A stretch of DNA of 40,075 bases from an uncultured Gemmatimonadaceae bacterium (GTDB taxonomy: Bacteria > Gemmatimonadota > Gemmatimonadetes > Gemmatimonadales > Gemmatimonadaceae). The notes beneath the pieces are model-generated. The model worked only from the letters and a program-made list of their open reading frames with translations, had not been told where the DNA came from and did no database searches. Where the stretch lies: positions 1 to 40,075 of the forward strand of contig CBQVAZ010000001.1 in NCBI GenBank assembly GCA_967720205.1. Direction: 5' to 3'. Positions 273 through 40,017 of this stretch are shown piece by piece (position 1 is the stretch's first letter; the number at the start of each line of letters is the position of its first letter). Made by a program: the position numbers and the translations under genes.

Positions 273-1208
273 GTGCGCGACGACGCCATCGTCTCGACCA
301 CGCGCGACCCGGGTCTCGTCGCCTCGTGGCGCTCATGCGCAAAGCCGTTTCAGGTCATGCCGTTCCTGGAAGAGGGCGGGCACACCACGCTCAATTGGGG
401 CGACGACCAACTCGCCCTCGCCTGCGCTTCACACGGCGGTGAACCGGAGCACATCGCGATCGCCAAGGCGATGCTCAAGGACATCGGGCTCGAGGAAGGG
501 GACCTCGCCTGCGGCGTGCACGAGCCGCTCTCCGCGCGCGGCGTGAAGATGCTGCGCGACGCGGGCCTGCGCCCGACGCGCCTGCATAACAACTGCTCCG
601 GCAAGCACTCGGCGATGCTCGCGCGCGCGCACCTGGCCGGCTGGTCCACGCACGGCTACGAGCGCGAAGGTCATCCCGTCCAGGAAGGATGCCTAACGAG
701 CGTCGCTGAATGGACCGGCGTGCCGCCGAGTGACATCGATCGTGGTGTCGATGGCTGTGGTGTGGTCGTCTTCAACCTTCCGTTGGAAGCGATGGCTCGC
801 GCCTACGCACGCTTCGCAGCTGCCGTCGCACGCGGCGAGCCTACGCCCACGCGCATATCAGCCGCGATGAGTGCGCGGCCATTCCTGGTCGGCGGCAGCG
901 ACCGGTTCGATACCGTGATCATCGAAGAAACGCGCGGCAACGTGATCGCCAAGATCGGCGCCGAGGGCGTTCACTGCGCGGCGGTCATCGATCAGGGGAT
1001 CGGCATCGCTGTAAAGGTCGAAGACGGTGCTGCACGCGCACAGTATCCGGCACTACTCGAGGTTCTGCGGCGCTTCGGCGTTTGTGATCCGCTACCCGCG
1101 CGGCTTGTCGATTTCGCGCGCCCGAAGATTCGCAACACGCGAGGCGAGAACGTTGGTGAGGTCTGTCTGGCTTCCGCGAGCACCGCGGGTGCCGCGGCGC
1201 TGCGTTAG
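273..1208 (+). CDS. Asparaginase-family protein (L-asparaginase II type)
   Basis: ORF track 273..1208. The product resembles the Rhizobium-type asparaginase family (CSGKH, GAEGV segments). Family-like N-terminal sequence (DVVVTRGSIVESYHRVHAAVV) continues in frame upstream to the stop at 189-191. The true start is therefore probably upstream of 273, and the only candidate there is CTG at 195. Confidence 0.7.
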   Translation: MRDDAIVSTTRDPGLVASWRSCAKPFQVMPFLEEGGHTTLNWGDDQLALACASHGGEPEHIAIAKAMLKDIGLEEGDLACGVHEPLSARGVKMLRDAGLRPTRLHNNCSGKHSAMLARAHLAGWSTHGYEREGHPVQEGCLTSVAEWTGVPPSDIDRGVDGCGVVVFNLPLEAMARAYARFAAAVARGEPTPTRISAAMSARPFLVGGSDRFDTVIIEETRGNVIAKIGAEGVHCAAVIDQGIGIAVKVEDGAARAQYPALLEVLRRFGVCDPLPARLVDFARPKIRNTRGENVGEVCLASASTAGAAALR

Positions 1209-1253
1209 GCAACTTCCACCACGCGGCGCCAAGTATCAGGTCGCAATGATTCG

Positions 1254-1907: not shown

Positions 1908-1932
1908 CACCCAACTCCAACCCCTAACCATT

Positions 1933-2952
1933 GTGTTTTTAGACCGTGTCATCGTTAGGGTCGAGGCCGGAACCGGTGGGAGTGGTGCGTCGTCCTTCCG
2001 TCGCGAGACGTACGTCCCCATGGGCGGGCCCGACGGCGGCGACGGCGGTCGCGGCGGCGACATCATCGCGCGTGGAGACAACAATCTCGCGACGCTGCTC
2101 GACTACACATACAAAGACCAGTGGGTCGCCGAGCGCGGTCAACATGGCAAGGGCGCAAACAAGACGGGGAAGTCCGGAGCCGACGTCGTGCTTCCCGTCC
2201 CGGTGGGCACCGTTATCCGCGACGCAAACAGCGCCGAATGGTTAGGCGAAATCCTCGAGTCCGGCGCCGAGATCATCGTTGCGCGTGGCGGCCGCGGTGG
2301 CCGCGGCAATGCGTTCTTTGTTACCGCCACGCACCAGTCCCCACGCGAATGGCAGCCAGGGGAAGAGGGACAGAAGCGCACGCTGGAGCTGGAGCTCAAG
2401 CTCATCGCCGACGTCGGTCTGGTCGGTGAGCCTAACGCCGGCAAATCCACGCTGCTGTCTGTCATCTCGGCGGCGCGTCCCAAGATCGCCGATTATCCGT
2501 TCACGACACTCGTTCCAAACCTTGGAGTCGTGCAGCTCTCAGATCACCGCACGTTCGTCGTCGCCGACATCCCGGGCATCATCGAGGGTGCGCACGAAGG
2601 GAAAGGACTCGGCCTGCGATTCTTGCGACACATCGAGCGCACGCGTCTGCTCGCGTTTCTCATTCCGGTCGATTCGCTGGATTGGCAGGAAGAGTACAAG
2701 CGGCTGCGTCACGAGATCGCCAGCTACTCGCCGGAGCTAGCCGAGAAGCCACACTGCGTCGTGTTCACGAAGATGGATTTGTTAGGCGGTGACCCGCCTC
2801 CCGAGATCGACGCGTCCGGCGCGTTCGGCGTATTCGCGATCAGCGCCGCGGCACGCACGAGTCTCGACACCTTACTCGCCGCGTGGTGGACGAAGCTGCT
2901 GCAACTGCGCGCTGACGCAGAGAAGGCGAGTCGTGCAGACGCCGTCCTCTAA
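1933..2952 (+). CDS. obg: GTPase Obg/CgtA
   Basis: N-terminal Gly-rich Obg fold (GGDGGRGGDII, ARGGRGGRGN), G1 motif GEPNAGKST, and DIPGIIEGA. Confidence 0.93.
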   Translation: MFLDRVIVRVEAGTGGSGASSFRRETYVPMGGPDGGDGGRGGDIIARGDNNLATLLDYTYKDQWVAERGQHGKGANKTGKSGADVVLPVPVGTVIRDANSAEWLGEILESGAEIIVARGGRGGRGNAFFVTATHQSPREWQPGEEGQKRTLELELKLIADVGLVGEPNAGKSTLLSVISAARPKIADYPFTTLVPNLGVVQLSDHRTFVVADIPGIIEGAHEGKGLGLRFLRHIERTRLLAFLIPVDSLDWQEEYKRLRHEIASYSPELAEKPHCVVFTKMDLLGGDPPPEIDASGAFGVFAISAAARTSLDTLLAAWWTKLLQLRADAEKASRADAVL

Positions 2953-3832
2953 CGCCTCAGCGACCAACTGCAACGCATCGATAATCGCCGCAGATGACGA
3001 GCGGTACCCCGCGATGCTGCGCACACTGCGCGACCCACCCCCTCGTATCTTCACGCTAGGCAACACAACGCTGCTTTCGCAGACGGCCGTTGCAATCGTA
3101 GGAACTCGCAATGCTACGGCCTATGGCCTCCGCACTACCAAGAACATCGCGAGCGCTTTGGCTCGCTCCGGCGTTGTGATCGTGAGTGGAATGGCCCGCG
3201 GCATCGATGCCGCAGCGCATGAAGCCGCACTCGATGCGAACGGTCCGACCATCGCCGTACTCGGCACAGGCGTCGACGTGCCGTATCCAGCGAGCCACCG
3301 GGCCCTGCACGCGCGCATTGCCAAACACGGTCTCATTATGTCGGAGTTGCCCTGCGGCGCACGCGCTCATCGCGGATCTTTTCCTCGGCGCAATCGACTG
3401 ATCGCAGGGCTCGCTCGCGCGGTGATCGTGACGGAAGCTCCCGTGAAGAGCGGCGCGCTGATCACAGCCAACGTTGCCAACGATATCGGGCGTGACGTCG
3501 GCATGGTGCCGGGGAACATCGATTCGCCGGCGAGTGAAGGGAGCAATCGCCTGCTGCGCGACGGTGCCACGCCGATCTTGAGCCTGGCTGACGCGCTCAC
3601 GTTAGGCGGCGTCTCAGCAGATGCTACCGCGGCCGTGCGCCCGAATGCCGCCGAGCTGACAGAAGACGCGCAATTGCTTTGGCGTGCGCTATCCGCCAGC
3701 GGCCCGCTCTCTGCCGACGCACTCGCCCGAGCGGGCGGGCTCGAGGCGCGTCGCGCTGGACCTGCGCTGGCCGCGCTGGAGATCGCGGGATGGGTCGAGA
3801 TCGATCATGCCGGAGTGATCTTCGCCAAGTAG
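2933..3832 (+). CDS. dprA: DNA-processing protein DprA
   Basis: DprA Rossmann core (IVGTRNATAYG, VVIVSGMARGIDAAAHEAAL, FPRRNRLIAGL). The track ORF starts at 2789, inside obg. The in-frame GTG at 2933 gives a 20-nt overlap and a normal N-terminus, but the start remains uncertain. Confidence 0.85.
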   Translation: MQTPSSNASATNCNASIIAADDERYPAMLRTLRDPPPRIFTLGNTTLLSQTAVAIVGTRNATAYGLRTTKNIASALARSGVVIVSGMARGIDAAAHEAALDANGPTIAVLGTGVDVPYPASHRALHARIAKHGLIMSELPCGARAHRGSFPRRNRLIAGLARAVIVTEAPVKSGALITANVANDIGRDVGMVPGNIDSPASEGSNRLLRDGATPILSLADALTLGGVSADATAAVRPNAAELTEDAQLLWRALSASGPLSADALARAGGLEARRAGPALAALEIAGWVEIDHAGVIFAK

Positions 3833-3833: not shown

Positions 3834-4964
3834 TTGAACGGTGTGAGCAGCACCGCTCGTCACCTTTATGTGCACGTGCCGTTTTGCGCGCGGCGCTGCT
3901 CCTATTGCGACTTTGCCATCGCTGTGCGCCGCGACCTCCCCGTGCAACACTATGTGGACGCGCTTGGCGCCGAGCTGTCGCTGCGTCTCGGGGCCGGCGC
4001 GCTCGAAGTCGACACGATCTATCTCGGCGGTGGCACGCCCTCGATCCTCGGATCTGACGGCGTTACTGCGCTGCTCACGCTCCTCAGACGATACGTCAGC
4101 GACGCACCTAACGCCGAAGTCACAATCGAAGCGAATCCTGAAGACGTTAGTCAAAACGCCGTGCGCCAGTGGCGTGAGATTGGCGTCACGCGTGTCTCGT
4201 TAGGTATCCAGTCCTTCGAGCCTCGCGTGCTGGAATGGATGCACCGGGTGCACGACGCCGCGACGGCACGGCACGCCGCCGGCATCATCGCGAACGCCGG
4301 CTTCGCGTCCTGGTCGCTGGACCTCATCTTCGCGCTTCCTGACCACCTGGAGCGCGACTGGCAACGCGATCTCGATCAAGCGCTCGCGCTCGATCCGCCA
4401 CACATCTCGGCGTACGGCCTAACGGTTGAGCCGCATACTGCGCTCTCGAAATGGGTCGCGCGAGGAGCCGTGACCGATACACCCGAAGAGCGATACGAGA
4501 ACGAATTCCTTGTGACGCACGAGCGACTCGTGGCGGCCGGCCTCGAACACTACGAAGTGTCGAACTATGGAAGGGCGGGCCACGAGAGCAGGCACAACTC
4601 CGCCTATTGGTCCAAGGCGCCGTACATCGGTGTTGGACCGTCTGCGCATTCGTTCGATGGACGTGAGCGGCGCTGGAACGCACGCGAATACCAGGCATGG
4701 GCCGCCCAAGCGGCAGCAGGCAGCGATCCTCTGGCAGGAAACGAGGTATTAACAGCCGAGCAGCGGTTCCTGGAGGATTTGTACCTCGGACTTCGCTCGT
4801 CCAGCGGTCTCAGCGTTGACCAGGTTCAGCCAGAGATCGTCGAGAAATGGCGGGAACAAGGGTGGGCTCAGGCTGAGCGCTCGCGCGTGCGCCTTACGCC
4901 GCAGGGTTGGCTGAGGCTCGACGCCCTCGTCTCAGCCTTGACCGCTTACTCAAACCATTGCTAG
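3834..4964 (+). CDS. hemW: Radical SAM heme chaperone HemW / oxygen-independent coproporphyrinogen-III oxidase-like
   Basis: CxxxCxxC radical SAM motif (HVPFCARRCSYCDF), about 376 aa, located upstream of hrcA as in many bacteria. Confidence 0.88.
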   Translation: MNGVSSTARHLYVHVPFCARRCSYCDFAIAVRRDLPVQHYVDALGAELSLRLGAGALEVDTIYLGGGTPSILGSDGVTALLTLLRRYVSDAPNAEVTIEANPEDVSQNAVRQWREIGVTRVSLGIQSFEPRVLEWMHRVHDAATARHAAGIIANAGFASWSLDLIFALPDHLERDWQRDLDQALALDPPHISAYGLTVEPHTALSKWVARGAVTDTPEERYENEFLVTHERLVAAGLEHYEVSNYGRAGHESRHNSAYWSKAPYIGVGPSAHSFDGRERRWNAREYQAWAAQAAAGSDPLAGNEVLTAEQRFLEDLYLGLRSSSGLSVDQVQPEIVEKWREQGWAQAERSRVRLTPQGWLRLDALVSALTAYSNHC

Positions 4965-4974: not shown

Positions 4975-6024
4975 ATGCCACGTCCCGAGCTCTCGGATCG
5001 CGAACGCCGCGTGCTCGAAGCAGTAATCCAGTCTTACGTGGAAACTGCCGAGCCTGCAGGGTCGCGCAATATTGCGCGACGGTTCGGCCTGGGCGTCTCT
5101 CCCGCCACGATCCGCAACACAATGAGCGATCTGGAGGAAAAAGGCTTTCTCTATCATCCGCACACGTCGGCGGGTCGAGTGCCCACCGACCTGGCGTATC
5201 GCATCTACGTCGACTCACTGACGCGACGAGCCGGCGCGACGGCCGCCGAAACAGGCCGCCTGACCGACGAGCTAGGCGGCGTTGGCCCATCTTCGACAAT
5301 CGCAACGATTCTGCGACGCGCCGCGCAGAGCTTGTCGGTCGTATCGCAGGAGCTGGGCGTGGCGTTAGGCCCGCGACTGGATCACGCAGTCCTGCAGCGG
5401 CTCGAGCTGACGCGACTGTCGCACGAGCGTCTGCTGCTCGTTCTGACGCTCCAGGCCGGGGGCGTGCGCACGATTTTCGTCGAGGTTGGCGGACAGATCG
5501 CCGATAGCGCCGTCGCTGAAGTCGCCCACGTACTCAACGAACGTCTCGCCGGCCTTTCCCTCTCGGAAATCCGCACCACGCTGGCGTCGCGGGTGCGCGA
5601 TTCCGCGCCATCGCGCGATGCGCATGAGCTGCTCAACGTCTTCGTGCAGGAAGGGGACGTTCTCTTCGATGTCCCGCTGGTCCCGGACGATGACGCCGTT
5701 GTGCTAGGGCAGACGTCGGTGCTCGCTGAACAGCCCGAATTCGCGAGCGGCGATAACATGCGGCGACTGATCGCGCTGACAGATCGGCAGGAACAGTTGG
5801 CCGAGATGCTGCGTCGGCGCAGTGAAAGCTCAGGCATTTCGATTACTATTGGGAACGAACACGCCGATCCACGAATGGAGCACCTGACGCTAGTCACCGC
5901 GTCGTACCACGCGGGTCCGCTTTCGGGCGTGATCGGTGTGATCGGCCCGACTCGCATGCCGTACGAGAAGGTGATCGCGCTCGTTAGGCACGCCTCGCAA
6001 CTGGTTTCCGAAGTCCTGCAATAA
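4975..6024 (+). CDS. hrcA: Heat-inducible transcription repressor HrcA
   Basis: N-terminal winged helix (LSDRERRVLEAVIQSYVETAEPAGSR) and C-terminal GVIGVIGPTRMPY, both typical of HrcA. Confidence 0.92.
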   Translation: MPRPELSDRERRVLEAVIQSYVETAEPAGSRNIARRFGLGVSPATIRNTMSDLEEKGFLYHPHTSAGRVPTDLAYRIYVDSLTRRAGATAAETGRLTDELGGVGPSSTIATILRRAAQSLSVVSQELGVALGPRLDHAVLQRLELTRLSHERLLLVLTLQAGGVRTIFVEVGGQIADSAVAEVAHVLNERLAGLSLSEIRTTLASRVRDSAPSRDAHELLNVFVQEGDVLFDVPLVPDDDAVVLGQTSVLAEQPEFASGDNMRRLIALTDRQEQLAEMLRRRSESSGISITIGNEHADPRMEHLTLVTASYHAGPLSGVIGVIGPTRMPYEKVIALVRHASQLVSEVLQ

Positions 6025-6027: not shown

Positions 6028-7170
6028 ATGGCCGATTTCTACAAGACCCTCGGCGTCTCGCGCGACGCGTCGGACGACGACGTCAAGAAGGCGTACCGCA
6101 AGCTTGCGGTGAAATACCACCCCGATCGCAATGGTGGCTCGCACGATTCCGAGGAGAAGTTCAAGGCAATTACGGAAGCGTACGACGTGTTGCGCGATCC
6201 GCAGAAGCGTGCCGCGTACGATCGCTACGGCGAGGAAGGGCTTCGCAGTGGTGGCATGCCAGGAGGCTTCCACCACGTCGATCTCAGCGAAGCGCTCAAC
6301 ATCTTCATGCGCGACTTCGGCGGCTTCGCCGGAGGGTTGGGCGATCTTTTTGGGAGCGCGCGCCGCTCGTCAGGCGGTCCGCGTGCCGGTGCCGACGTAA
6401 AGGTCACGATCGAGTTGACGTTGCCTGAGGTGGCAACTGGTATCACCAAGACCGTCACGGCTAAGCTGCTCGATCCTTGCGATGCGTGCTCCGGCTCGGG
6501 TGCGGAAGCCGGAACCAAACCACATCGCTGTCAGACATGCGCCGGCAGCGGCGAAGTACGCCGCGCGGAGCGCTCGTTCTTCGGCCAGTTCGTGAGCGTC
6601 GTGCCGTGTCCGACGTGTTCCGGCGAAGGCGTGGTGATCGGCGCCGTCTGCAAGAAGTGCCGTGGCGAGGGACGCATCCGCGGCGAGCACACGATCCCGA
6701 TTCAGATCCCTGCGGGTGTCGCGACAGGTCAGTACATGACGCTTCGCTCCGTCGGTAATGCGGGTCCTCGCGGTGGACCGCGCGGGGACGTTCTCGTCGT
6801 GTTCGACGTGCTCGACGATCCACGCTTCGAGCGCGACGGTGAAGATCTCTACACCGAAGTTCTCGTGTCCTATCCGCAGCTCGTGTTAGGCGCGGACGTC
6901 GAGGTACCTGCTGTGCACGGCACACTGCGCGTGCGTATCCCAGCTGGGACGCAGAGCGGTCAGATGCTGCAGCTGCGCAGCCGAGGTCTGCCACGGGTGA
7001 ACGGTGGTGGCATCGGCGATCTGCACGTGCGCGTGCAGCTCTGGACGCCGAGCTCCCTCGCGCCGGAAGAAGAGGCACTCATCGCGCAGCTCGCGACGAT
7101 GCAGCGCGTGCCGGATCAGCCACGCGAAAAGGGATTCTGGACACGTATGAAGGAAGCGTTAGGCGCGTGA
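6028..7170 (+). CDS. dnaJ: Molecular chaperone DnaJ
   Basis: J domain (DFYKTLGV ... YHPDRN), a Gly-rich linker, and four CxxCxGxG zinc-finger repeats. Confidence 0.95.
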   Translation: MADFYKTLGVSRDASDDDVKKAYRKLAVKYHPDRNGGSHDSEEKFKAITEAYDVLRDPQKRAAYDRYGEEGLRSGGMPGGFHHVDLSEALNIFMRDFGGFAGGLGDLFGSARRSSGGPRAGADVKVTIELTLPEVATGITKTVTAKLLDPCDACSGSGAEAGTKPHRCQTCAGSGEVRRAERSFFGQFVSVVPCPTCSGEGVVIGAVCKKCRGEGRIRGEHTIPIQIPAGVATGQYMTLRSVGNAGPRGGPRGDVLVVFDVLDDPRFERDGEDLYTEVLVSYPQLVLGADVEVPAVHGTLRVRIPAGTQSGQMLQLRSRGLPRVNGGGIGDLHVRVQLWTPSSLAPEEEALIAQLATMQRVPDQPREKGFWTRMKEALGA

Positions 7171-7997: not shown

Positions 7998-8764
7998 CAG
8001 CTTTTTTCTGCGCCGATGAGGCGCTGGAACCTGGCGCGACGATCTCGTTAGGCGAGGGGGTCGCGCGGCACATGCGCGTGCTGCGTCTGTCCATCGGCAG
8101 CCGCGTAACCGTACTCGACGGCATAGGGCATCGCGCGCAGGGTCGCGTCACGAAAACGGGAACGTCGTCGGCGACGATCGAGATCGACGAAGTGCTGGCG
8201 CACTTGCCGCCACCGAGCGTGCATCTCCTGGTTCCGATCGCTGATCGCGACCGAATGCTCTGGTTAGGCGAGAAGGTTGCCGAGCTTGGGACCACGAGTT
8301 GGCGGCCGGTGCTCTGGCGCCGCTCGCGCAGTGTGAAACCGCGCGGCGAAGGGATGATGTTCCAGGGACGTTTGCGTGCGCGCATGGTGAGCGCGCTGGA
8401 GCAAAGCGCGGGGACGTGGCTCCCACAGCTTTACCCAGATGCGTCGCTCGATCGCGCGCTCACGGCGCTGCCACAGGGGTTGCGTCTCGTGCTCGATCCA
8501 GGTGCGGAGGCGAGCATCGCGTCGCTCGCAAACATTTCCGCACCAGTGACAATTGCAGTCGGTCCTGAAGGCGGTCTCGAGGCGAGTGAAATCGCGACCC
8601 TCGCCGCGGCTCACTTCCAGCCGGTGAGACTGGGGGGCAATATCCTTAGGTTCGAGACAGCAGCGATAGCGGCGTTAGCGATTGTCCGGTCGCTGCTCGA
8701 CGCACCGAATACCGCCTCGCCCCCATCCGATGTCGCCGACATGTCTATTCTGCAAAATCGTTAG
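7952..8764 (+). CDS. rsmE: 16S rRNA (uracil1498-N3)-methyltransferase RsmE
   Basis: RsmE-like (FFCADEAL ... HMRVLRL; C-terminal GPEGGL ... LGGNILRFETA). The start is uncertain (GTG 7952 or GTG 7970), and both overlap the end of prmA. Confidence 0.82.
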   Translation: MERGRLVDGGNGSGLAAFFCADEALEPGATISLGEGVARHMRVLRLSIGSRVTVLDGIGHRAQGRVTKTGTSSATIEIDEVLAHLPPPSVHLLVPIADRDRMLWLGEKVAELGTTSWRPVLWRRSRSVKPRGEGMMFQGRLRARMVSALEQSAGTWLPQLYPDASLDRALTALPQGLRLVLDPGAEASIASLANISAPVTIAVGPEGGLEASEIATLAAAHFQPVRLGGNILRFETAAIAALAIVRSLLDAPNTASPPSDVADMSILQNR

Positions 8765-24782: not shown

Positions 24783-24839
24783 CTCAACGATCGTCAACTG
24801 AGAACGCAGCCACGGGTTGCGGAGGCCGGCTAGCCTAAC

Positions 24840-33943: not shown

Positions 33944-34867
33944 TTGGTGGCTACGATGCAAACGATGACAGCGAGTGCAGAGCTGATCGACGGAACGGCG
34001 ATCGCGAAGGCGGTGCGTGCCGACGTCGCGCGCGACGTGGCGCTCTTGCGCGATCGGGGGATCACGCCCGGCCTAACGGTTGTCCTTGTCGGCGACAATC
34101 CAGCGAGCGCTGTGTACGTGAGCTCGAAGGAGCGGGCGAGCGTGGAGGCTGGGATGGCAGGCGAGACGATTCGTCTTCCTGCGACGACGACGCAAGCCGA
34201 GCTGCTCGAGCACGTGGATCGTCTCAACGCCGACGCAACGGTGCACGGAATTCTCGTGCAGATGCCGCTGCCGCCGCACATCGATCCAAACACCGTGATC
34301 CGTCGAATTGATCCGGCCAAGGACGTCGATGGCTTTCATCCGGTAAACGTCGGCAAGCTACTCATCGGGGAACGCGACGGCTTTGCGCCCTGTACGCCCG
34401 CGGGCGTGCAGGAGCTGCTCGTTAGGTCCGGAATAGAGACCAAGGGGAAGGATGCTGTCATCGTAGGGCGCAGCAACATCGTCGGCAAGCCGATGGCCGC
34501 GCTGCTGATCCAGGATCGTCCTGGCGGCAACTGTACGGTGACGGTCTGCCACAGCCGGACTCATGACCTGGTCGGCCACGTTAGGCGAGGGGACATCGTT
34601 ATCGCGGCGCTCGGCCGACCCGGGTCCATTCATGGCGACATGCTCAAACCGGGCGCCGTCGTGATCGACGTCGGGATCAATCGAGTCGACGACCCGTCGG
34701 CCAAGAAAGGATATCGCATCGTCGGCGACGTAGATTTCGAGAGCGCGTCGCGCGTGGCGTCGCGCATCACGCCCGTCCCCGGCGGCGTAGGGCCGATGAC
34801 GATCGCGATTCTGCTGCGGAACACAGTTCAGGCGGCGCGCCAGCTCGCTGGGCGAGCGCGGACGTAG
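33944..34867 (+). CDS. folD: Bifunctional methylenetetrahydrofolate dehydrogenase / methenyl-THF cyclohydrolase
   Basis: LIDGTAIAK ... [44 protein letters not shown]. The start is uncertain (33944 TTG, 33956 ATG or 33965 ATG). Confidence 0.93.
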
Positions 34868-34868: not shown

Positions 34869-36140
34869 GTGTCCTCTCGCCAGAGTGCATCGGGCGAGAC
34901 CCACCCCGAGCTGTTCCGGTCCGGCGAGCGGGAGCGGCAGGTAGTGCCTAACGAAGCACGGCTAATCGAGGCGCGCAAGCCGTCCAGCGATCCTGGCGCG
35001 TCTCCGACTACGGCGATCCAGGTCAGCACGCTGACTGGCTTTATCCGCGATCTTCTCGAGGGCGCGTTCGGGAGGATCTGGATCCGCGGTGAGGTCACGG
35101 GCTTCAAGCGTCAAGCCAAAGGGCACTGGTACTTCACGCTGCGCGACGACAATGCCGTCATCAAGTGCGTCATGTGGGCGACAGACGTACAGCGCGTGAA
35201 AGTTCCGCCGGTCGAAGGTATGTCCGTCGTGGCACTGGGACTCGTTAGGGTACACGAGAAGGCTGGCGAGGTGCAGTTCAGCGTGAAGGCTTTGCAGCCG
35301 GTCGGAGAAGGCGCGTGGCGCTTGGCGTTCGAGGAGACACGGAAACGTCTCGACGCCGAGGGGTTGTTTGCTGCTTCGCGAAAGAGACCGCTGCCGCTGT
35401 TGCCGCGTCGCATTGCGATCGTAACGAGCCAGGACGGTGCCGCACTGCACGACATCGTAACAGTTATTCGCAAGCGTTGTCCGATCGTGGAGCTCGTGCT
35501 CGTGCCGGCTCAAGTCCAGGGAGAAGACGCGCCGAAGGCGATGCGCCGTGCGCTCACTCGCGTAGCGAAATGGCGCGGCGCCGATCTCGTGATCATCGGC
35601 CGCGGGGGTGGTTCGCGCGAAGACCTTTGGGCATTCAACGACGAGATGCTGGCGCGTGCTGTCGCCTCATTTCCCGTCCCGACTATCTCGGCAGTTGGGC
35701 ACGAACTCGATGTTACGATCTGCGATCTCGTGGCCGATCACCGCGCGCCGACGCCGACAGCCGCGGCAGAAATTGCGGTACCTGACTTGAACGACTTGCG
35801 CGCGCAGCTGGTCGACTGCGCGCACGTGCTCAACCGCCAGGTTACCCGGCTCACCTCGTTAGGCCACGAACGGCTCGCGTCGATCACGCAGCGGCTGCAT
35901 GGACGCACCGAGCAGTTGTTCGAGCGGCGTCGCATGCGTCTCGAGTCTTGCGCGGGCCGTCTGGATGCGCTCAGTCCGCTCGCTACGTTCCGCCGCGGGT
36001 ACGCCGCCGTGTTCGGGGAAGACGGACGCTCGATCAGTGACGCGCGCGATGTGAACGCCGGCGATGCCGTGGAGGTACGGATGCGGGACGGGTCGTTCGA
36101 CGCCCGAGTCGAGTCCACAAACTTGCAGACGTCGCCGTGA
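34869..36140 (+). CDS. xseA: Exodeoxyribonuclease VII large subunit
   Basis: OB-fold N-terminus (VSTLTGFIRDLLEGAFGRIWIRGEVTGFK ... HWYFTLRD) and catalytic core (GRGGGS.EDLWAFN). GTG 34943 is an alternative start. Confidence 0.92.
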   Translation: MSSRQSASGETHPELFRSGERERQVVPNEARLIEARKPSSDPGASPTTAIQVSTLTGFIRDLLEGAFGRIWIRGEVTGFKRQAKGHWYFTLRDDNAVIKCVMWATDVQRVKVPPVEGMSVVALGLVRVHEKAGEVQFSVKALQPVGEGAWRLAFEETRKRLDAEGLFAASRKRPLPLLPRRIAIVTSQDGAALHDIVTVIRKRCPIVELVLVPAQVQGEDAPKAMRRALTRVAKWRGADLVIIGRGGGSREDLWAFNDEMLARAVASFPVPTISAVGHELDVTICDLVADHRAPTPTAAAEIAVPDLNDLRAQLVDCAHVLNRQVTRLTSLGHERLASITQRLHGRTEQLFERRRMRLESCAGRLDALSPLATFRRGYAAVFGEDGRSISDARDVNAGDAVEVRMRDGSFDARVESTNLQTSP

Positions 36141-36352: not shown

Positions 36353-37241
36353 CGTCGGCCTAACGCCGCTCGCCCTCGAGCGTGAGACCGTAGATCGTGC
36401 CTTACGCGACGTCACGGCGCAGCAGCTGGAGAATTGCGCCGGCAGCGTGGCAGACGCTGTGCGGTATGCGCTGGAGGGAAGCGGGAAGCGCATCCGCGGC
36501 GCGATCGTCCTCGCGTCATATCGTGCGTGCGGGGGCCACGGCGACGCGTCACGTCTTGCCGCTGCAGTAGAGATCGTGCATGCGTACTCGCTCGTGCACG
36601 ATGACCTGCCGTGCATGGATGACGATGCCTTCCGGCGTGGACGGCCGACCGTGCATCGTGCCTTCGACGTGCGCACAGCGACGATCGCCGGCGTAGCCAT
36701 GGTTCCGATCGCCGTGCGCAGTGCCTATCGAGCGGCACGAGAGCTTGGCCGCTCAGCGGAGCAAGCAACCGAAATCGTGCGCGAGCTGATGCGCGCGTCA
36801 GGCGCCTCAGGAATGGTTGGCGGTCAGTGGCTTGATCTCGCTGCTGCGGGCGGCGACACCACTGTGCAGGAGTTGGAGCGTATGCATCGCATGAAGACAG
36901 GCGCGCTGCTCTGCGCGAGCGCTCGCATCGGCGCGCGTGCGGCGAACGCGTCGGAGCAGATCGTCGCCGCGCTGGATCGCTTCGGAGCAGAGGTCGGACT
37001 CGCATTTCAGATCGTGGATGACGTGCTGGACGTAACTTCCACGTCTGACGTATTGGGGAAAACAGCGGGGAGCGACGCGTCGCGCGGGAAGCGCACCTTT
37101 CCGGCGCTGCTCGGCGTCAACGGCGCATTGGATCGTGCACGTGAGCATGTTTCGGCTGCGTGTGAAGCGCTCGCGGCGCAGGGAATCCTGAGCGACGAGC
37201 TGGACGCGCTGGCCCGTTACGCTGTGGAACGGCGGGCATAG
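36345..37241 (+). CDS. ispA: Polyprenyl (farnesyl/geranylgeranyl) diphosphate synthase
   Basis: First and second Asp-rich motifs (LVHDDLPCMDDDAFRRG, FQIVDDVLD). The xseB-ispA-dxs order is as in E. coli. Confidence 0.9.
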   Translation: MVDVGLTPLALERETVDRALRDVTAQQLENCAGSVADAVRYALEGSGKRIRGAIVLASYRACGGHGDASRLAAAVEIVHAYSLVHDDLPCMDDDAFRRGRPTVHRAFDVRTATIAGVAMVPIAVRSAYRAARELGRSAEQATEIVRELMRASGASGMVGGQWLDLAAAGGDTTVQELERMHRMKTGALLCASARIGARAANASEQIVAALDRFGAEVGLAFQIVDDVLDVTSTSDVLGKTAGSDASRGKRTFPALLGVNGALDRAREHVSAACEALAAQGILSDELDALARYAVERRA

Positions 37242-37261: not shown

Positions 37262-39145
37262 ATGTCGTTGCTTGATTCGATCCATTCGCCTGACGATTTA
37301 CGCCGCCTGACGAAGGACCAACTTCCGCAGGTGGCGGCCGAGCTGCGCGCGCGTCTGATCGACGTCTGCTCGCGCACGGGCGGGCACATCGGAGCAGGGC
37401 TTGGCGTCGTGGAGCTGACGATCGCGCTGCATTACGCGTTCGACACGCCGCGCGACCAGCTGGTGTGGGACGTCGGACATCAAGGCTATCCGCACAAGGT
37501 GCTCACGGGCCGCAACGAGCAGCTCGAGACGCTGCGCACCGAAGGCGGCCTCTCCGGCTTCCTCAAGCGTTCGGAAAGCGCGTACGACGTGTTCGGCGCC
37601 GGCCACGCGGCCACGGCGATTTCAGCCGCGTTAGGTGTTGCCGCCGGCAGGGACTTGGTGGGGGGCAACTACAAGGTCGTCGCGGTCGTGGGAGATGGCG
37701 CCCTGACATGCGGTCTCGCGTACGAGGGTCTCAACAACTCCGGCGCTTCGGAGCGCGACATCATCGTCATCCTCAACGACAACGAGATGTCGATCGCGCC
37801 TAACGTGGGCGCGATATCCAAGTACCTCACGCAGATCCAGCGTAATCCGCTGTACAATCGCGTGCGCGCCAAGATCGGCGACATCATCGAGCACGCGCCG
37901 GCGATCAACAACCTCGTGCGCAAGTGGGAAGAGTCGATGAAGTCCTTCCTCACGCCGGGCGTGCTATTCGAAGAACTGGGCTTCCGCTACTTCGGCCCCA
38001 TCGATGGCCACAATGTCGCTGCGATGGTCGATCTCTTTTCCGCCATTCGCCCGCACACAGGCGCGCGCCTCGTGCATGTCGTCACGCAGAAGGGCAAAGG
38101 ATTCCCGGCAGGCGAACACGTCGAGAAGTGGCACGCGTTGCCGCCGGGACACGATCCCTCGACAGGCAAGCAGGTCAAATCCTCGTCAGGCAACGCGAAC
38201 TACACCTCGATCTTCGGCCAGGGCTTGGCAGATCTGATGCGCGAGCGCGAAGACGTCGTGGCGATCACCGCCGCCATGCCGAGTGGCACTGGCACGGCCA
38301 CCGTCGCGAAAGCATGGCCCAAAAGATTCTTCGACGTCGGGATCGCCGAGGGGCACGCAGTCACGTTCGCCGCGGGGCTCGCGACGCGTGGCATCCACCC
38401 CGTTTGCGCGATCTACTCCACGTTCCTCCAGCGCGCGTACGACAACATCATCCATGATGTGGCCGTGCAGTCGCTCCCGGTCGTCTTTGCCATGGACCGC
38501 GCAGGACTCGTGGGCGAGGACGGCGAAACGCACATGGGTCTCTACGATATCGCTTACATGCTCGCCGTGCCGGGCATGACTGTCACGGCACCGAAGGATA
38601 GTCGCGAGATGCTGGCGCTCTTGCGCACTGGCGTTATGCATAACGCGGGACCGTTCGCACTGCGCTATCCGCGTGACGCCGCTCCGGACATCCCACCGCC
38701 GATGAGCGAGATCGGGCCCACACCATTCGCGTCGTGGGAAGTCCTGCGCAGCGGCAGCGGCGACTTCGCGATCCTCGCCGTTGGCACGATGGTCCTGCCG
38801 TCGCTCGCCGCGGCAGAGACGCTCGCGCAGGAAGGCTTCGACATCACCGTCGTCAACTGCCGCTTCCTCAAGCCGCACGACGAAGTCACGCTGGCGGCGC
38901 TGTTGTCCAACCATCACCACTTTCTCGTGGTGGAAGAAGGGAGCGTGACGAACGGCTTCGGCGCGTATATAAGCGCGGTCGTGCAGCGAATTGACGCGAA
39001 CGTGCGCGTGGCGACGCACGGTGTTCCCGACCGCATCATGTACGCGGCGCCGCGCGCTCGACAGCTCGCGTCGTGCGGTCTCGATGCCGCCGGCATCGCG
39101 GCGAAAGTGCGAGCGCTGAACGCGACCGAGGCAATGACTCCGTGA
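37262..39145 (+). CDS. dxs: 1-deoxy-D-xylulose-5-phosphate synthase
   Basis: GGHIGAGLGVVELT, GHQGYPHK, GDGALTCG and the transketolase-like pyrimidine-binding and C-terminal domains; 627 aa. Confidence 0.95.
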   Translation: MSLLDSIHSPDDLRRLTKDQLPQVAAELRARLIDVCSRTGGHIGAGLGVVELTIALHYAFDTPRDQLVWDVGHQGYPHKVLTGRNEQLETLRTEGGLSGFLKRSESAYDVFGAGHAATAISAALGVAAGRDLVGGNYKVVAVVGDGALTCGLAYEGLNNSGASERDIIVILNDNEMSIAPNVGAISKYLTQIQRNPLYNRVRAKIGDIIEHAPAINNLVRKWEESMKSFLTPGVLFEELGFRYFGPIDGHNVAAMVDLFSAIRPHTGARLVHVVTQKGKGFPAGEHVEKWHALPPGHDPSTGKQVKSSSGNANYTSIFGQGLADLMREREDVVAITAAMPSGTGTATVAKAWPKRFFDVGIAEGHAVTFAAGLATRGIHPVCAIYSTFLQRAYDNIIHDVAVQSLPVVFAMDRAGLVGEDGETHMGLYDIAYMLAVPGMTVTAPKDSREMLALLRTGVMHNAGPFALRYPRDAAPDIPPPMSEIGPTPFASWEVLRSGSGDFAILAVGTMVLPSLAAAETLAQEGFDITVVNCRFLKPHDEVTLAALLSNHHHFLVVEEGSVTNGFGAYISAVVQRIDANVRVATHGVPDRIMYAAPRARQLASCGLDAAGIAAKVRALNATEAMTP

Positions 39146-40017
39146 TGCGCGTCGGCGTCGTCGGCAACCTGGGCTACGCCGATCTGCAAAGCGTTCTCCG
39201 GCAACTCGGCCGCATGGCGCCGGACGCGGGTGCCGAACTTGTCTTCGAGCCGGAGCTGCAGTCGCTGCTCGGCGAGCACGCGCGTCCATTCGATACCGCG
39301 GGTGTTGATGCGCTCATCACGTTAGGCGGCGACGGGACACTGCTCCGCGCCGCGCGACTGCTCGGTGGACGCGAGATTCCGATCCTCGGCGTCAACTTCG
39401 GCCAGCTCGGCTTTCTCACGGCGTGCCGCCGCGACGATGCGGAGCTTGCCCTCAAGCGGCTGGTGGCTGGTGACTTCCTGGCCGAGTCGCGCATGGTGCT
39501 CGAGGCGTTCACCATGCCGACCAAAGGCGAGCGCTGGTACGCGCTCAACGATGTCGTGCTGCACATCGCGGGCAAGGCGCGTATGATGCGCCTGCGCATC
39601 GAAGCGGACGGCGAGCTTGTCGGTTCATTCGCGGCCGACGGGCTCATCGCGTCGACGCCAACGGGATCCACGGCGTACTCGCTGAGCGCGGGCGGTCCGG
39701 TCGTCGATCCCGCGCTTGATTCGATCATCCTAACGCCGGTTTCGGCGCATACGCTCGCGATTCGGCCTTTACTCCTGCGTCCCATGGCAACGGTCGCCGT
39801 ATGGACCGAAGGCGATGCCGCCGAGCGGCGCCTAACGGTCGACGGCCAGGCTGGACGCTCACTAGCCGATGGCGAGGCGATGTGCGTTCGTCGTGCCGAT
39901 CACCGCGTGCTCCTCGTACGGTTCCCCGATACGAGCTTTTTCCGTCGGCTGCGACAAAAGCTGGCCTGGACCACGCCAGCTGGTAGTGAGGAAGCCGGCG
40001 GCTCCGCCGACGACTGA
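39145..40017 (+). CDS. nadK: NAD kinase
   Basis: GGDGTLL motif (ITLGGDGTLLRAARL), NDVV and STPTGSTAYSLSAGGP. ATG 39145 shares one base with the dxs stop codon. The track start at 39073 lies inside dxs. Confidence 0.9.
   Translation: MRVGVVGNLGYADLQSVLRQLGRMAPDAGAELVFEPELQSLLGEHARPFDTAGVDALITLGGDGTLLRAARLLGGREIPILGVNFGQLGFLTACRRDDAELALKRLVAGDFLAESRMVLEAFTMPTKGERWYALNDVVLHIAGKARMMRLRIEADGELVGSFAADGLIASTPTGSTAYSLSAGGPVVDPALDSIILTPVSAHTLAIRPLLLRPMATVAVWTEGDAAERRLTVDGQAGRSLADGEAMCVRRADHRVLLVRFPDTSFFRRLRQKLAWTTPAGSEEAGGSADD

Follow-up and report, generated by a model that had tools for sequence, protein, structure and literature searches.

Distribution of a recurrent DNA word in a Gemmatimonadaceae genome

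The stretch of 40,075 nucleotides analysed here (the window), from an uncultured Gemmatimonadaceae bacterium, raises the question of why one short word, GTTAGG or its complement CCTAAC, recurs along its whole length. An exact recount gave 49 GTTAGG, 33 CCTAAC, 37 CGTTAGG, 30 CCTAACG and 35 GTTAGGC, reproducing exactly all the hexamer and heptamer counts made by hand in the initial annotation; the copies span positions 692 to 39836. In an unbiased k-mer scan, CGTTAGGC ranked first among all octamers of the window. It occurred 24 times and GCCTAACG 23 times, whereas the expectation for the octamer was 0.8 (first-order Markov model) or 4.4 (third-order) against 47 observed (z = 20). The GTTAGG core of the consensus is strict, the C flanking it on both sides is strong, and the T at −2 is weaker. 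In addition, synonymous codons were shuffled 1000 times, gene by gene; this null is conservative because the rare codons contributed by the word itself are retained. The shuffles gave 5.6 ± 1.8 copies of GTTAGG (maximum 12) and 8.9 ± 2.2 of CCTAAC (maximum 17), far below the 49 and 33 observed. The excess over chance that had been estimated by hand was therefore borne out by both the Markov expectations and the codon-aware null, and the over-representation of the word in the window is confirmed.

Coding contexts of the word

No usable context was left out: the word lay within genes in four frames, formed real stop codons and also occurred between genes. In coding frames, it was read as Leu-Gly (34 copies), Leu-Thr (15), Pro-Asn (13) or Val-Arg (11). 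Five copies were intergenic, and four (1204, 8760, 17187 and 17706) supplied a real stop codon. The word thus provided the stop codon of 4 of the 38 genes in the window and of 121 of the 977 predicted genes on plasmid 1 (1.1 Mb) of the cultured Gemmatirosa kalamazoonensis. Within the window, 34 of the 57 TTA, 15 of the 50 CTA and 11 of the 38 AGG codons lay in the word, which also spelled 13 of the 29 Pro-Asn and 34 of the 119 Leu-Gly dipeptides. The copies between 692 and 17711 are as follows (coordinates, strand, sequence, context).

692..697, minus, CGTTAGGC, asparaginase-II-like gene, Leu-Thr
1204..1209, plus, CGTTAGGC, TAG is stop codon of asparaginase-II-like gene
1923..1928, minus, GGTTAGGG, intergenic, inverted pair with 1954 copy (31-nt gap, window minimum)
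1954..1959, plus, CGTTAGGG, obg, Val-Arg
2241..2246, plus, GGTTAGGC, obg, Leu-Gly
2431..2436, minus, CGTTAGGC, obg, Pro-Asn, GTPase G1 loop
2781..2786, plus, TGTTAGGC, obg, Leu-Gly
3601..3606, plus, CGTTAGGC, dprA, Leu-Gly
4107..4112, minus, CGTTAGGT, radical-SAM (hemW-like) gene, Pro-Asn
4199..4204, plus, CGTTAGGT, radical-SAM (hemW-like) gene, Leu-Gly
4418..4423, minus, CGTTAGGC, radical-SAM (hemW-like) gene, Leu-Thr
5364..5369, plus, CGTTAGGC, hrcA, Leu-Gly
5983..5988, plus, CGTTAGGC, hrcA, Val-Arg
6885..6890, plus, TGTTAGGC, dnaJ, Leu-Gly
7158..7163, plus, CGTTAGGC, dnaJ, Leu-Gly
8047..8052, plus, CGTTAGGC, rsmE, Leu-Gly
8263..8268, plus, GGTTAGGC, rsmE, Leu-Gly
8760..8765, plus, CGTTAGGA, TAG is stop codon of rsmE
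9035..9040, plus, TGTTAGGC, HIT-family gene, Leu-Gly
9236..9241, plus, CGTTAGGT, DUF4159 gene, Leu-Gly
9621..9626, minus, CGTTAGGC, DUF4159 gene, Pro-Asn
10356..10361, plus, CGTTAGGC, intergenic, upstream of mutS2
10751..10756, minus, CGTTAGGC, mutS2, Leu-Thr
11436..11441, minus, CGTTAGGT, mutS2, Pro-Asn
11744..11749, plus, CGTTAGGT, mutS2, Leu-Gly
12369..12374, minus, CGTTAGGT, mutS2, Pro-Asn
13216..13221, plus, CGTTAGGC, dnaG, Leu-Gly
13336..13341, plus, CGTTAGGC, dnaG, Leu-Gly
13669..13674, plus, CGTTAGGC, dnaG, Leu-Gly
14656..14661, plus, CGTTAGGC, dnaG, Leu-Gly
15063..15068, plus, TGTTAGGC, CT398-like coiled-coil gene, Val-Arg
15862..15867, minus, CGTTAGGT, recJ, Leu-Thr
16229..16234, plus, CGTTAGGT, recJ, Val-Arg
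16828..16833, minus, CGTTAGGC, recJ, Leu-Thr
17187..17192, minus, CGTTAGGC, plus-strand TAA is stop codon of recJ
17578..17583, minus, AGTTAGGC, rsmD, Leu-Thr
17706..17711, minus, CGTTAGGC, TAA is stop codon of rsmD

It had been claimed that the word is written by synonymous choice alone, the amino acids being the conserved and expected ones. On the contrary, about two-thirds of the comparable copies differ from the outgroups in amino acid. The host dipeptide was unchanged in 36% of the comparisons with word-less outgroups, no more often than the baseline of 39%, and the replacements led, for instance, from Leu-Ala to Leu-Gly or Leu-Thr and from Thr-Arg to Val-Arg. These comparisons show that many copies arose through replacement, amino acid changes being part of the price of writing the word.

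Spacing and orientation of the copies

With both orientations pooled, the copies in the window were more evenly spaced than chance (gap CV of 0.66 vs 0.98, P < 1e-4; 0.60 for the heptamer set), whereas either orientation alone was not (0.90 and 0.84). The gap CV was 0.58 in phage L232 (P = 0.002), and on the Gemmatirosa plasmid the spacing z was −3.1, with gaps of 100–300 nt halved. The order of orientations in the window was random, as had been proposed, with 41 runs compared with 40.4 expected. On the complete 1.1-Mb Gemmatirosa replicon there was no leading-strand skew (405 of the 778 copies, 52%), and the mild strand bias of the word tracks gene sense, in agreement with the earlier claim that it has no replication-oriented polarity. 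Because such polarity is absent, a Chi- or KOPS-type role of the word is disfavoured.

Lineage distribution of the word

The enrichment extended beyond the window to its relatives and to the Gemmatirosa plasmid. Densities per 10 kb were 16–21 copies in relatives down to 67% PheT identity, 4–12 in lineages further away and about 0.4 in other Gemmatimonadota. The clade carrying the word had 18.9 hexamers and 12.2 octamers per 10 kb, compared with 0.36 and 0.14, respectively, in the orthologous regions of word-less Gemmatimonadota (50- to 85-fold). CGTTAGGC was also the top octamer in eight relatives and on the complete replicon, Gemmatirosa plasmid 1, which contained 778 octamers versus 39 expected and a word count far above the codon-shuffle null. 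Across the carriers in the Gemmatimonadaceae, a family of soil bacteria, the word occurred about once per 500–1400 bases in either direction. In a large Gemmatimonadaceae subgroup, CGTTAGGC is a DNA 'watermark' that runs through the whole genome. A literature search found no published description of it, consistent with the initial statement that its function is undescribed.

The word was also found in one phage lineage at 32–37 copies per 10 kb, compared with 1.25 in 78 related phages. In a 40%-identical relative of the word-bearing phage, regulators and a resolvase were present and a clear integrase was not found. The phage density was about twice that of the host, and this enrichment above the host level fits a benefit within the cell better than passive drive.

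Conservation of individual copies

Copies in the window were conserved at 59–92% of aligned positions, compared with 17–65% for ordinary hexamers. Codon conservation inside and outside the word was 71% vs 9% for TTA, 63% vs 4% for CTA, 60% vs 3% for AGG and 82% vs 14% for CCT. Together with the codon shuffles, these values uphold the original view that it is the DNA word, and not the protein or codon bias, that is under pressure. Lineages at 57–60% PheT identity to the window (L411, 60%; L410, 59%; L001, 57%) had 2–4 of their few copies in common with it. At site 31063, the word is present in L410, L411 and L001 and absent from the window, where the copy at 31111 lies 48 bp away. The alignments show that single copies stay in position across deep divergence. 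The copies between 18491 and 39836 are given below, with the number of aligned relatives in which each was kept.

18491..18496, minus, CGTTAGGC, pta, Leu-Thr, kept 1/1
19474..19479, minus, GGTTAGGC, STAS gene, Leu-Thr, kept 2/7
19598..19603, minus, CGTTAGGC, intergenic
20060..20065, minus, CGTTAGGC, anti-sigma kinase gene, Leu-Thr, kept 6/7 including L411 (60% PheT identity)
20314..20319, plus, CGTTAGGC, GAF-SpoIIE gene, Leu-Gly, kept 5/7
20812..20817, plus, CGTTAGGT, GAF-SpoIIE gene, Leu-Gly, kept 5/7
21097..21102, plus, GGTTAGGC, GAF-SpoIIE gene, Leu-Gly, kept 0/7, window-private
21412..21417, plus, CGTTAGGC, GAF-SpoIIE gene, Leu-Gly, kept 5/7
21897..21902, minus, CGTTAGGT, rsmA, Pro-Asn, kept 4/7
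22358..22363, minus, CGTTAGGC, rsmA, Leu-Thr, kept 5/7
22720..22725, plus, CGTTAGGG, within rex, the sole minus-strand gene
23370..23375, plus, AGTTAGGT, intergenic
23912..23917, plus, CGTTAGGC, ADI-family gene, Leu-Gly (outgroups Leu-Ala), kept 3/7
24435..24440, minus, CGTTAGGC, ADI-family gene, Pro-Asn, kept 6/7
24834..24839, minus, CGTTAGGC, intergenic
25115..25120, plus, CGTTAGGT, RNase T-like gene, Leu-Gly (outgroups Leu-Glu), kept 3/8
25331..25336, plus, CGTTAGGG, RNase T-like gene, Leu-Gly, kept 2/7
25522..25527, plus, CGTTAGGC, MBL-fold gene, Leu-Gly (outgroups Pro-Thr), kept 5/8
25678..25683, plus, AGTTAGGC, MBL-fold gene, Leu-Gly, kept 2/8
25997..26002, minus, CGTTAGGT, MBL-fold gene, Pro-Asn, kept 7/9
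26726..26731, plus, CGTTAGGC, infC, Val-Arg
27545..27550, plus, CGTTAGGC, rplT, Val-Arg, kept 7/9
28120..28125, minus, CGTTAGGC, pheS, Leu-Thr, kept 5/10
28381..28386, plus, CGTTAGGC, pheS, Leu-Gly, kept 9/11 including L410 (59%) and L001 (57%), among the oldest copies
29242..29247, minus, CGTTAGGC, pheT, Pro-Asn, kept 7/11
29454..29459, plus, CGTTAGGC, pheT, Leu-Gly (outgroups Val/Ala-Gly), kept 8/11
29731..29736, plus, TGTTAGGC, pheT, Val-Arg, kept 3/11
30078..30083, plus, CGTTAGGC, pheT, Leu-Gly, kept 8/11 including L410 and L411
30276..30281, plus, TGTTAGGC, pheT, Leu-Gly, kept 9/11 including L001
30663..30668, plus, CGTTAGGC, pheT, Leu-Gly (outgroups Leu-Ala), kept 3/11
31111..31116, minus, CGTTAGGC, pheT, Pro-Asn, kept 6/11
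33025..33030, minus, CGTTAGGC, rny, Pro-Asn, kept 9/10
33528..33533, plus, AGTTAGGC, rny, Leu-Gly, kept 7/9
34072..34077, minus, CGTTAGGC, folD, Leu-Thr (outgroups Leu-Ala), kept 7/9
34421..34426, plus, CGTTAGGT, folD, Val-Arg, kept 7/9
34580..34585, plus, CGTTAGGC, folD, Val-Arg (outgroups Thr-Arg), kept 0/9, window-private
34947..34952, minus, CGTTAGGC, xseA, Pro-Asn, kept 5/6
35244..35249, plus, CGTTAGGG, xseA, Val-Arg (outgroups Leu-Thr), kept 1/8
35858..35863, plus, CGTTAGGC, xseA, Leu-Gly, kept 7/8
36359..36364, minus, CGTTAGGC, ispA, Leu-Thr, kept 4/7
37630..37635, plus, CGTTAGGT, dxs, Leu-Gly, kept 7/8
37799..37804, minus, CGTTAGGC, dxs, Pro-Asn, kept 7/8 including L410
39321..39326, plus, CGTTAGGC, nadK, Leu-Gly, conserved LGGDG, kept 7/8
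39729..39734, minus, CGTTAGGA, nadK, Leu-Thr, kept 1/8
39831..39836, minus, CGTTAGGC, nadK, Leu-Thr, kept 7/8

Candidate functions of the word

Among the functions suggested in the initial annotation, a role in methylation is weakened. G. kalamazoonensis carries the word once per 1.4 kb; the m6A motifs in its published SMRT methylome are only RGATCY, ATGCAC and CCAGN7TCA (PMC3974934), and the word is thus not an m6A site in Gemmatirosa. Nucleoid-protein binding is kept as a rival, and an uptake-like signal is preferred. In either case, some protein would read the word on double-stranded DNA in either direction, and the benefit would be counted per DNA segment, such that one copy per few hundred bases suffices and a close second adds nothing. 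Whether the word serves uptake or is bound by a nucleoid or 'self-mark' protein is decided here by inference. The main rival is an intracellular self-mark or nucleoid-protein site; a nucleoid-protein site would fit the even spacing and the positional conservation equally well, and the phage density above the host level speaks for an intracellular benefit.

We tentatively suggest that the word may be a signal for DNA uptake or self-recognition, comparable to USS/DUS; no such signal is known from this phylum. The likeliest reader would be the natural-transformation DNA-uptake machinery: word-bearing fragments would be preferentially imported and then recombined, which would tag DNA as 'kin' and drive the accumulation of the word, also in phages co-evolving with their hosts. 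The DprA encoded in the window was counted in favour of uptake, but it is not diagnostic because dprA is nearly universal. It counts against uptake that no uptake experiment or competence phenotype for any Gemmatimonadota was found in the literature.

Under the uptake reading, the word is likened to the USS of Pasteurellaceae and the DUS of Neisseriaceae. Two differences count against it: AT tracts flank the USS and are absent beside the word, and one-mismatch variants of the core were enriched only 1.5- to 1.9-fold, whereas a roughly 10-fold enrichment has been reported for USS variants (PMC1939737). Recognition of the word thus appears sharper than that by known uptake receptors. HIP1, another such word, is now being tied to transformation. 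On the other hand, published USS/DUS are evenly spaced and lack orientation bias, with 65% of the copies in ORFs (PMC1939737), and the word shares the even spacing and the absence of orientation bias. Uptake words also accumulate in the phages of competent hosts (PMC6776037), as this word does in one phage lineage.

Over-representation of the word in the window

The initial annotation had counted by hand a strand-symmetric octamer, CGTTAGGC (core GTTAGG; reverse complement GCCTAACG), and these counts were reproduced exactly: 49 GTTAGG, 33 CCTAAC, 37 CGTTAGG, 30 CCTAACG and 35 GTTAGGC. The full octamer was present 24 times as CGTTAGGC and 23 times as GCCTAACG, giving 82 hexamers (GTTAGG or CCTAAC) and 47 octamers in 40 kb, between the start of the first copy at 692 and the end of the last at 39836. 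CGTTAGGC/GCCTAACG ranked first in an unbiased scan of all 6- to 8-mers of the window, and the 47 octamers observed compare with 0.8 expected from a first-order and 4.4 from a third-order Markov model (z = 20). A codon-aware null was obtained from 1000 within-gene synonymous shuffles that kept the proteins and the codon usage of each gene. With the rare codons contributed by the word itself thus retained, the shuffles gave 5.6 ± 1.8 GTTAGG (maximum 12) against 49 observed, and 8.9 ± 2.2 CCTAAC (maximum 17) against 33 observed. The null misses the observed counts by z = 11-25, and the excess over codon bias that had been claimed is therefore real.

The logo of the copies in the window reads t-C-GTTAGG-C/t-g. 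Conservation ends 2 nt on either side of the word and the flanks further out are uninformative; since no information lies beyond the two flanking bases, the word does not belong to a longer repeat. No enrichment was seen for single changes in the six-base core, variation being tolerated only at the two flanking positions. One-off variants of the core occurred in the window at the Markov expectation (26 versus 27.7) and were only 1.5- to 1.9-fold above the outgroup background. Within the longest word-free gap of the window (31111-33025, 1914 nt) lie zapA and a small gene for a hypothetical protein, 180 nt of intergenic DNA and the 5' part of rny. Neither Rfam nor tRNA scans matched anything in the window, this gap included.

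Placement of the word in genes

The window holds about 38 genes, all on the plus strand except rex, and 77 of the 82 copies overlap them, the other five being intergenic. Stop-free frames hold 73 copies, read as Leu-Gly (34), Leu-Thr (15), Pro-Asn (13) and Val-Arg (11), and in the four copies that use the remaining frame (1204, 8760, 17187 and 17706) the word supplies the real stop codon of the gene. Rare codons are concentrated in it: 34 of the 57 TTA, 15 of the 50 CTA and 11 of the 38 AGG codons of the window lie within the word, which also spells 13 of 29 Pro-Asn and 34 of 119 Leu-Gly dipeptides. The proposal that the word was imposed through synonymous codon choice only proved wrong. In comparisons with orthologues from word-free Gemmatimonadota, the dipeptide that hosts the word was the same in 36% of cases, against 39% for dipeptides generally, and many copies were made by amino-acid replacement (Leu-Ala to Leu-Gly or Leu-Thr, Thr-Arg to Val-Arg, and Pro-Thr to Leu-Gly). 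These results show that the word overrides codon usage, protein sequence and stop-codon choice, and it illustrates how a signal at the DNA level can do so.

The following genes lie in or next to the window:

2953-3832, plus strand: DprA gene (PF02481 and DprA winged-helix domain), between obg and a radical-SAM gene
Elsewhere in the window: mutS2, recJ and xseA
Just past the window, seen in syntenic relatives: recN

DprA is a RecA loader dedicated to transformation, and its gene, in the window, was the only one of a competence machinery to be seen. These genes fit a transformation role without being diagnostic of it; dprA is weak evidence because the gene is nearly universal.

Distribution among Gemmatimonadota and metagenomes

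Loci of other Gemmatimonadota were ranked by their PheT identity to the window, itself part of a Gemmatimonadaceae genome.

Density of the word by PheT identity to the window
Window; 100%; 20.5 hexamers per 10 kb
Eight relatives, orthologous regions; 96% to 67%; 16-21 hexamers per 10 kb, CGTTAGGC the top octamer in each
L411 and L410, sparse carrier lineages; 60% and 59%; 6.2 and 3.6 per 10 kb, almost all full octamer
L001, sparse carrier lineage; 57%; 12 per 10 kb (5 copies in 4.1 kb)
Nine other Gemmatimonadota loci (139 kb); 43-56%; 0.36 hexamers and 0.14 octamers per 10 kb

The word was enriched 50- to 85-fold in carrier hosts over word-free Gemmatimonadota loci, and the density differed about 5-fold among carrier lineages (3.6 to 21 copies per 10 kb), the syntenic relatives being non-independent samples of the genome. 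Outside synteny it was also dense, in a 6.6-kb block (L087) whose genes lie mostly on the minus strand, as called by a simple codon log-odds caller that was used for genes outside the window and validated on only one known gene table; recN, past the window, was dense as well. When metagenomes were searched for pairs of copies spaced by 180-210 nt, dozens of unrelated soil contigs (GC 0.56-0.73) came up; they were chosen for containing such a pair and hold many further dispersed copies. One of them, L163 (GC 0.70), was assigned to Gemmatimonadaceae by its ValRS. The enrichment is thus not confined to the window: it extends to relatives, other genome regions, metagenome contigs and a Gemmatirosa plasmid, and the word is clade-specific.

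A search of the word-free Gemmatimonadota for "dialect" words gave, as top hits, heptamer tandem repeats or sense-strand codon words, none of them strand-symmetric and dispersed. Intergenic heptamer tandem repeats were seen in L001 at 3858-3955, (GACTCGT)n with an inverted copy nearby, and in another Gemmatimonadota locus, L008, at 8427-8470, (ACGTCAT)n. Pattern matches unrelated to the bacterial word were set aside. They comprised low-GC contigs (L210, L194, L134 and others), most likely eukaryotic, whose tandem arrays are telomere-like, (TTAGG)n, or of other kinds, and viral contigs from the pattern scan (L210, L253, L257 and L209) with tandem or repeated protein modules. In the open-access literature we found no published account of the word; queries on the word itself gave only primer and telomere papers, and no earlier description was found in connection with uptake, competence or oligonucleotides in Gemmatimonadota.

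Conservation of the copies in place

Codon-level alignments of the window with its relatives were used to compare the retention of word copies with that of ordinary hexamers.

Retention by PheT identity of the relative (window copies kept in place; ordinary hexamers identical)
96%; 92%; 65%
89%; 88%; 38%
84%; 77-78%; 26%
75%; 59-67%; 22%
71%; 74%; 19%
67%; 68%; 17%

Conservation of codons in relatives at 67-75% identity (inside the word; outside the word)
TTA; 71%; 9%
CTA; 63%; 4%
AGG; 60%; 3%
CCT; 82%; 14%

Within the word, the same rare codons were conserved 5- to 20-fold better than elsewhere, and the copies occupied aligned codon positions without indels. It is apparent that the copies are under constraint at the DNA level. 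Copies were also common to the window and the sparse lineages (4 of 6 alignable copies in L410, 4 of 7 in L411 and 2 of 5 in L001); at site 31063 the word is present in all three and absent from the window, which has a copy 48 bp away. Conservation in place, together with the copies common to the sparse lineages, indicates that the word is old. It has been kept by purifying selection or a continuing drive, and has become denser in the sub-lineage of the window.

The word on plasmids of Gemmatirosa kalamazoonensis KBS708

Plasmid 1 of the cultured strain KBS708 (NZ_CP007129; 1,106,233 bp, GC 72.7%) was examined as a complete replicon. It carries the hexamer 916 times and the octamer 778 times (404 and 374 by orientation). 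There is thus one octamer per 1.4 kb, whereas 39 octamers are expected on the whole plasmid (z = 118), and the word ranks first among its octamers. The codon shuffle left 175 octamers, most of which are intergenic or gene-end copies, because these are largely spared by the shuffle. Every 10-kb interval of the plasmid contained at least one copy, and of its 977 predicted genes 121 end in a stop codon supplied by the word. On plasmid 2, 20 octamers lay in the first 50 kb. A tblastn search of plasmid sequences at large with PheT gave no Gemmatimonadota match.

An intergenic element of about 120 nt was found on plasmid 1 at 14170-14275 of the piece L428 and at about 10 further sites (814-847 kb). 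It consists of GCCTAACG, a GC-rich hairpin and CGTTAGGC, so that two word copies form inverted arms 88-90 nt apart, an arrangement that recalls the inverted DUS and USS pairs in terminators. A 12-nt tandem repeat, (GCGGCGTTAGGC)n, lies at 1,005,342-1,005,430 of NZ_CP007129 (5342-5430 of the piece L432); it would encode (Ala-Ala-Leu-Gly)n, the word appearing head to tail in apparent coding sequence. A second abundant word of the same plasmid, AGGACTGAAG(A), has 81 copies against 0.5 expected, and its relative GATTCGTTA has 64; both probably belong to a dispersed repeat family. The largest word-free stretch, 1,021,207-1,032,069 (10.9 kb), coincides with the minimum of the cumulative GC skew, a putative origin region.

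Spacing and orientation

The 82 copies of the window, pooled over both orientations, were more evenly spaced than random sites (CV 0.66 versus 0.98 ± 0.10, P about 1e-4), and 6 gaps were shorter than 150 nt where 21.6 were expected; for the heptamer set the CV was 0.60. The even spacing persisted when the random sites were limited to Leu-Gly, Val-Arg, Pro-Asn and Leu-Thr positions. The single orientations were uneven (CV 0.90 and 0.84) and no more even than after random relabelling. The order of the orientations was random, as had been noted from the sequence (41 runs versus 40.4 expected). Since only the pooled set is even and the order is random, whatever determines the spacing is blind to orientation. 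On plasmid 1, with tandem clusters collapsed, the CV was 0.825 versus 0.93 (z = -3.1), and 47 gaps of 100-300 nt were found against 97 expected. The primase initiation sites that TTA and CTA in the word might suggest, off-frame "ambush" stop codons, regulation via the rare TTA codon, and promoter or terminator elements were all rejected, because both orientations lie in genes and only the pooled set is even.

No replication polarity was detected, in agreement with the initial annotation. On plasmid 1, whose replichores were set from a weak cumulative GC skew, the leading-strand orientation accounted for 55.6% and 50.1% of copies by replichore and 52% overall. The orientation followed the sense of the genes instead: CGTTAGGC lay on the sense strand in 65% of the copies within plus-strand genes, whichever the replichore, and in 54-66% of those within minus-strand genes. 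The cause is the frequency of the Leu-Gly frame, which hosts more copies (322) than any other, Pro-Asn coming after it (176). In 38 independent metagenome contigs, 149 sense and 116 antisense copies were counted, with 22 and 21, respectively, in minority-strand genes. A strong local bias, far stronger than that of the window, was seen in three metagenome contigs of GC 0.68-0.73 (L143, 14:4; L163, 5:17; L185, 1:10), where GTTAGG lies on the sense strand of co-oriented genes. We attribute this bias to the preference for the Leu-Gly frame, an effect that is inseparable from replication direction on such short contigs.

Phages carrying the word

A scan of viral contigs yielded L232 (IMGVR_UViG_3300050501_000047; 7.8 kb, GC 0.60), which encodes an endolysin and virion proteins. 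It carries 29 dispersed copies (15 plus and 14 minus; 37 per 10 kb), 26 of them with a 5' C, and CGTTAGG is its top heptamer. The copies were evenly spaced (CV 0.58, P = 0.002). A 99%-identical contig, L331, had 32 copies per 10 kb, and the 78 related phages (41-44% identity over a 510-aa virion protein; 808 kb in total) had 1.25. The word is thus enriched about 28-fold in the L232 lineage, at about twice the host density. A complete relative of L232 (40% identity), a phage of 36 kb, encodes regulators resembling repressors as well as a resolvase. It is known that phages of Pasteurellaceae accumulate the uptake signal USS up to host levels (PMC6776037). A word-rich phage accordingly fits an uptake signal, but a density above that of the host fits a benefit inside the cell at least as well.

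Other viral contigs were also recovered. L229 (IMGVR_UViG_3300030095_003343; 11.3 kb, GC 0.50) has 23 dispersed GTTAGG (12 plus and 11 minus) with no preference for a 5' C, and may stem from a phage of another carrier lineage or carry a variant of the word. L218, L221 and L297 (GC 0.59-0.65) have 7-10 copies per 10 kb, those of L297 only in its right-hand 2.5 kb, and may derive from carrier genomes as prophages or as junctions between host and phage.

Possible roles of the word

The leading explanation, which we hold tentatively, is a signal for DNA uptake or kin recognition. A protein would read the word on duplex DNA in either direction, and the benefit of the word would be gained per DNA segment and saturate. 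By their published properties, USS and DUS match the word point by point: they occur about once per kb and equally in both orientations, are evenly spaced, lie in coding sequence with consequences for the peptides, keep their positions, are limited to one family and build up in phages. Against this reading, recognition of the word is unusually sharp, flanking AT tracts are absent and the phage exceeds the host density; competence reports for Gemmatimonadota were not found in the open-access literature.

A mark of "self", or an architectural site, that an abundant protein with sequence-specific DNA binding recognises within the cell is possible, if rather unlikely. This reader might be a nucleoid-associated protein, or a sensor through which a nuclease or defence system leaves word-bearing DNA intact; selection would hold at least one site per few hundred bases, and phages would gain by mimicking the host pattern. 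Spacing that is even and orientation-blind, the deep positional conservation, the absence of any 10-kb window of the 1.1-Mb replicon without a copy and the little enrichment of one-off variants are all consistent with such a mark. The phage lineage at about twice the host density, against 1.25 copies per 10 kb in its relatives, is as mimicry of a protective mark predicts, but phage enrichment is documented for uptake sequences too. The roughly 5-fold range of density among carriers would be odd for a structural requirement, no candidate reader was identified, and neither a protective word that works in both orientations nor a site-specific nucleoid protein is known to us at such density.

The initial annotation had also mentioned a methylation-linked word. 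In such a case, which we consider improbable, the word would be linked to methylation as HIP1 is: an orphan DNA methyltransferase, most likely for m5C, would act on it, and either a repair ratchet or a methylation-dependent sorting of incoming DNA would have amplified and kept it. HIP1 shares its abundance, conservation and non-random spacing and is tied to methyltransferases, and a strict, non-palindromic specificity of 6-8 bp resembles that of Type IIS, Type III or BREX-type enzymes. On the other hand, the word is not a palindrome, and even spacing is not expected from a repair ratchet. Because SMRT sequencing detects m5C poorly, m5C at the word may still occur. For m6A the suggestion fails: the SMRT methylome of the carrier G. 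kalamazoonensis lists only RGATCY, ATGCAC and CCAGN7TCA as m6A motifs, each methylated at >99% of its sites, and CGTTAGGC is not among them (PMC3974934).

A Chi-like site, at which a helicase-nuclease of the RecBCD or AddAB type would halt degradation, promote RecA loading and mark self, is disfavoured and appears very improbable. The word is short, non-palindromic and over-represented, as Chi is; Chi enrichment is established in some phages, as the word is enriched in the L232 lineage, and the plus, gene-carrying strand of the window shows a mild excess of GTTAGG (49 to 33). However, the octamer orientations in the window are 24 to 23, the leading-strand share on a complete replicon is 52% with a bias that tracks gene sense (65% in plus-strand genes of both replichores), and the word is about ten times denser than the Chi of E. 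coli. Chi acts one way only, yet the word is evenly spaced only when its orientations are pooled.

That the word has no function and arose from biased mutation or repair, from preferred codons or dipeptides, or through a dispersed mobile repeat, is close to refuted: lineage-specific oligonucleotide biases are common, and a small Gemmatirosa plasmid sub-family does reside in the repeated intergenic element and the 12-nt tandem repeat, but the codon-shuffle null fails, the uninformative flanks exclude a longer element, rare codons are far better conserved inside the word, close copies are avoided and amino acids have been altered to fit it.

Comparison with known genomic words

To our knowledge, only three hyper-abundant, strand-symmetric and conserved genomic words are well known, namely USS, DUS and HIP1, each of which opened work on how bacteria discriminate their own from foreign DNA.

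The USS of Pasteurellaceae has the core AAGTGCGGT (PMC1939737, PMC2817400, PMC6776037). Like the word, USS occurs far above expectation at about one copy per kb (thousands of copies for USS itself), in equal orientations, with no replication skew and more evenly than chance. Both lie mostly in genes and in particular reading frames, affect the encoded peptides, are conserved in position between related species, are found in one family only and build up in phages of the host. The word differs in its sequence and phylum, in having 8 bp without flanking AT tracts, in a density of up to one per 0.5 kb, in its frequent use as a stop codon and in its little one-mismatch enrichment, 1.5- to 1.9-fold, where the graded mismatch population typical of uptake sequences amounts to about 10-fold.

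The DUS of Neisseriaceae (GCCGTCTGAA and its dialects) is likewise family-specific, non-palindromic, hyper-abundant and orientation-neutral, with a lineage-dependent density, and its intergenic inverted pairs around hairpins resemble the Gemmatirosa plasmid elements. Unlike the word, DUS is 10-12 nt long, lies mostly in intergenic regions or terminators and has sequence dialects, whereas the same word was seen from 97% to 57% PheT identity. The receptor of DUS is the minor pilin ComP, for which no counterpart was identified.

HIP1 (GCGATCGC) of cyanobacteria is also an octamer, is conserved beyond codon and amino-acid constraints, is non-randomly spaced and has spread by substitution, not insertion. 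It reaches more than one copy per gene, is 15- to 300-fold over-represented and, after decades of debate on its function, now has a tentative link to transformation (PMC5861425, bioRxiv 10.64898/2026.06.24.733823). HIP1 is a palindrome with target sites for two methyltransferases, whereas the word lacks this symmetry and is absent from the m6A motifs of a carrier.

Chi (GCTGGTGG and species-specific variants) is short, asymmetric and over-represented, marks host DNA and can be enriched in phages; in contrast to the word, it is oriented by replication, acts in one orientation and is about ten times rarer. Sites of the Chi or KOPS type typically show 65-90% or more leading-strand copies, against the 52% of plasmid 1 with replichores set from a weak GC skew. 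Dispersed repeats of the REP or MITE type have sequence beyond the core, are mainly intergenic and spread by insertion, none of which applies to the word. Targets of restriction-modification are methylated and usually avoided; the word is enriched in hosts and phage and is not an m6A motif.

The word would then be one of two things, a joint proposition that we advance with some doubt: either the first DNA-uptake or kin-recognition sequence outside Proteobacteria (and arguably Cyanobacteria), or, more radically, a new orientation-independent self mark that is read in the cell and mimicked by phages at twice the host density. If the uptake reading is true, natural transformation would be widespread in soil Gemmatimonadaceae and its uptake specificity exploitable; CGTTAGGC added to constructs might render these bacteria transformable, and the culturable carrier G. 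kalamazoonensis KBS708 allows the hypothesis to be tested. Counts of the word offer a simple assignment of metagenomic contigs, plasmids and phages to the host clade. Without claiming membership in the uptake class, we consider the word to be probably the same kind of phenomenon as USS, DUS and HIP1, with a new phylum, a new asymmetric sequence and distinctive traits. A fourth such word, in an abundant, hardly cultivated soil phylum without genetic tools, would extend the phenomenon past the classical models.
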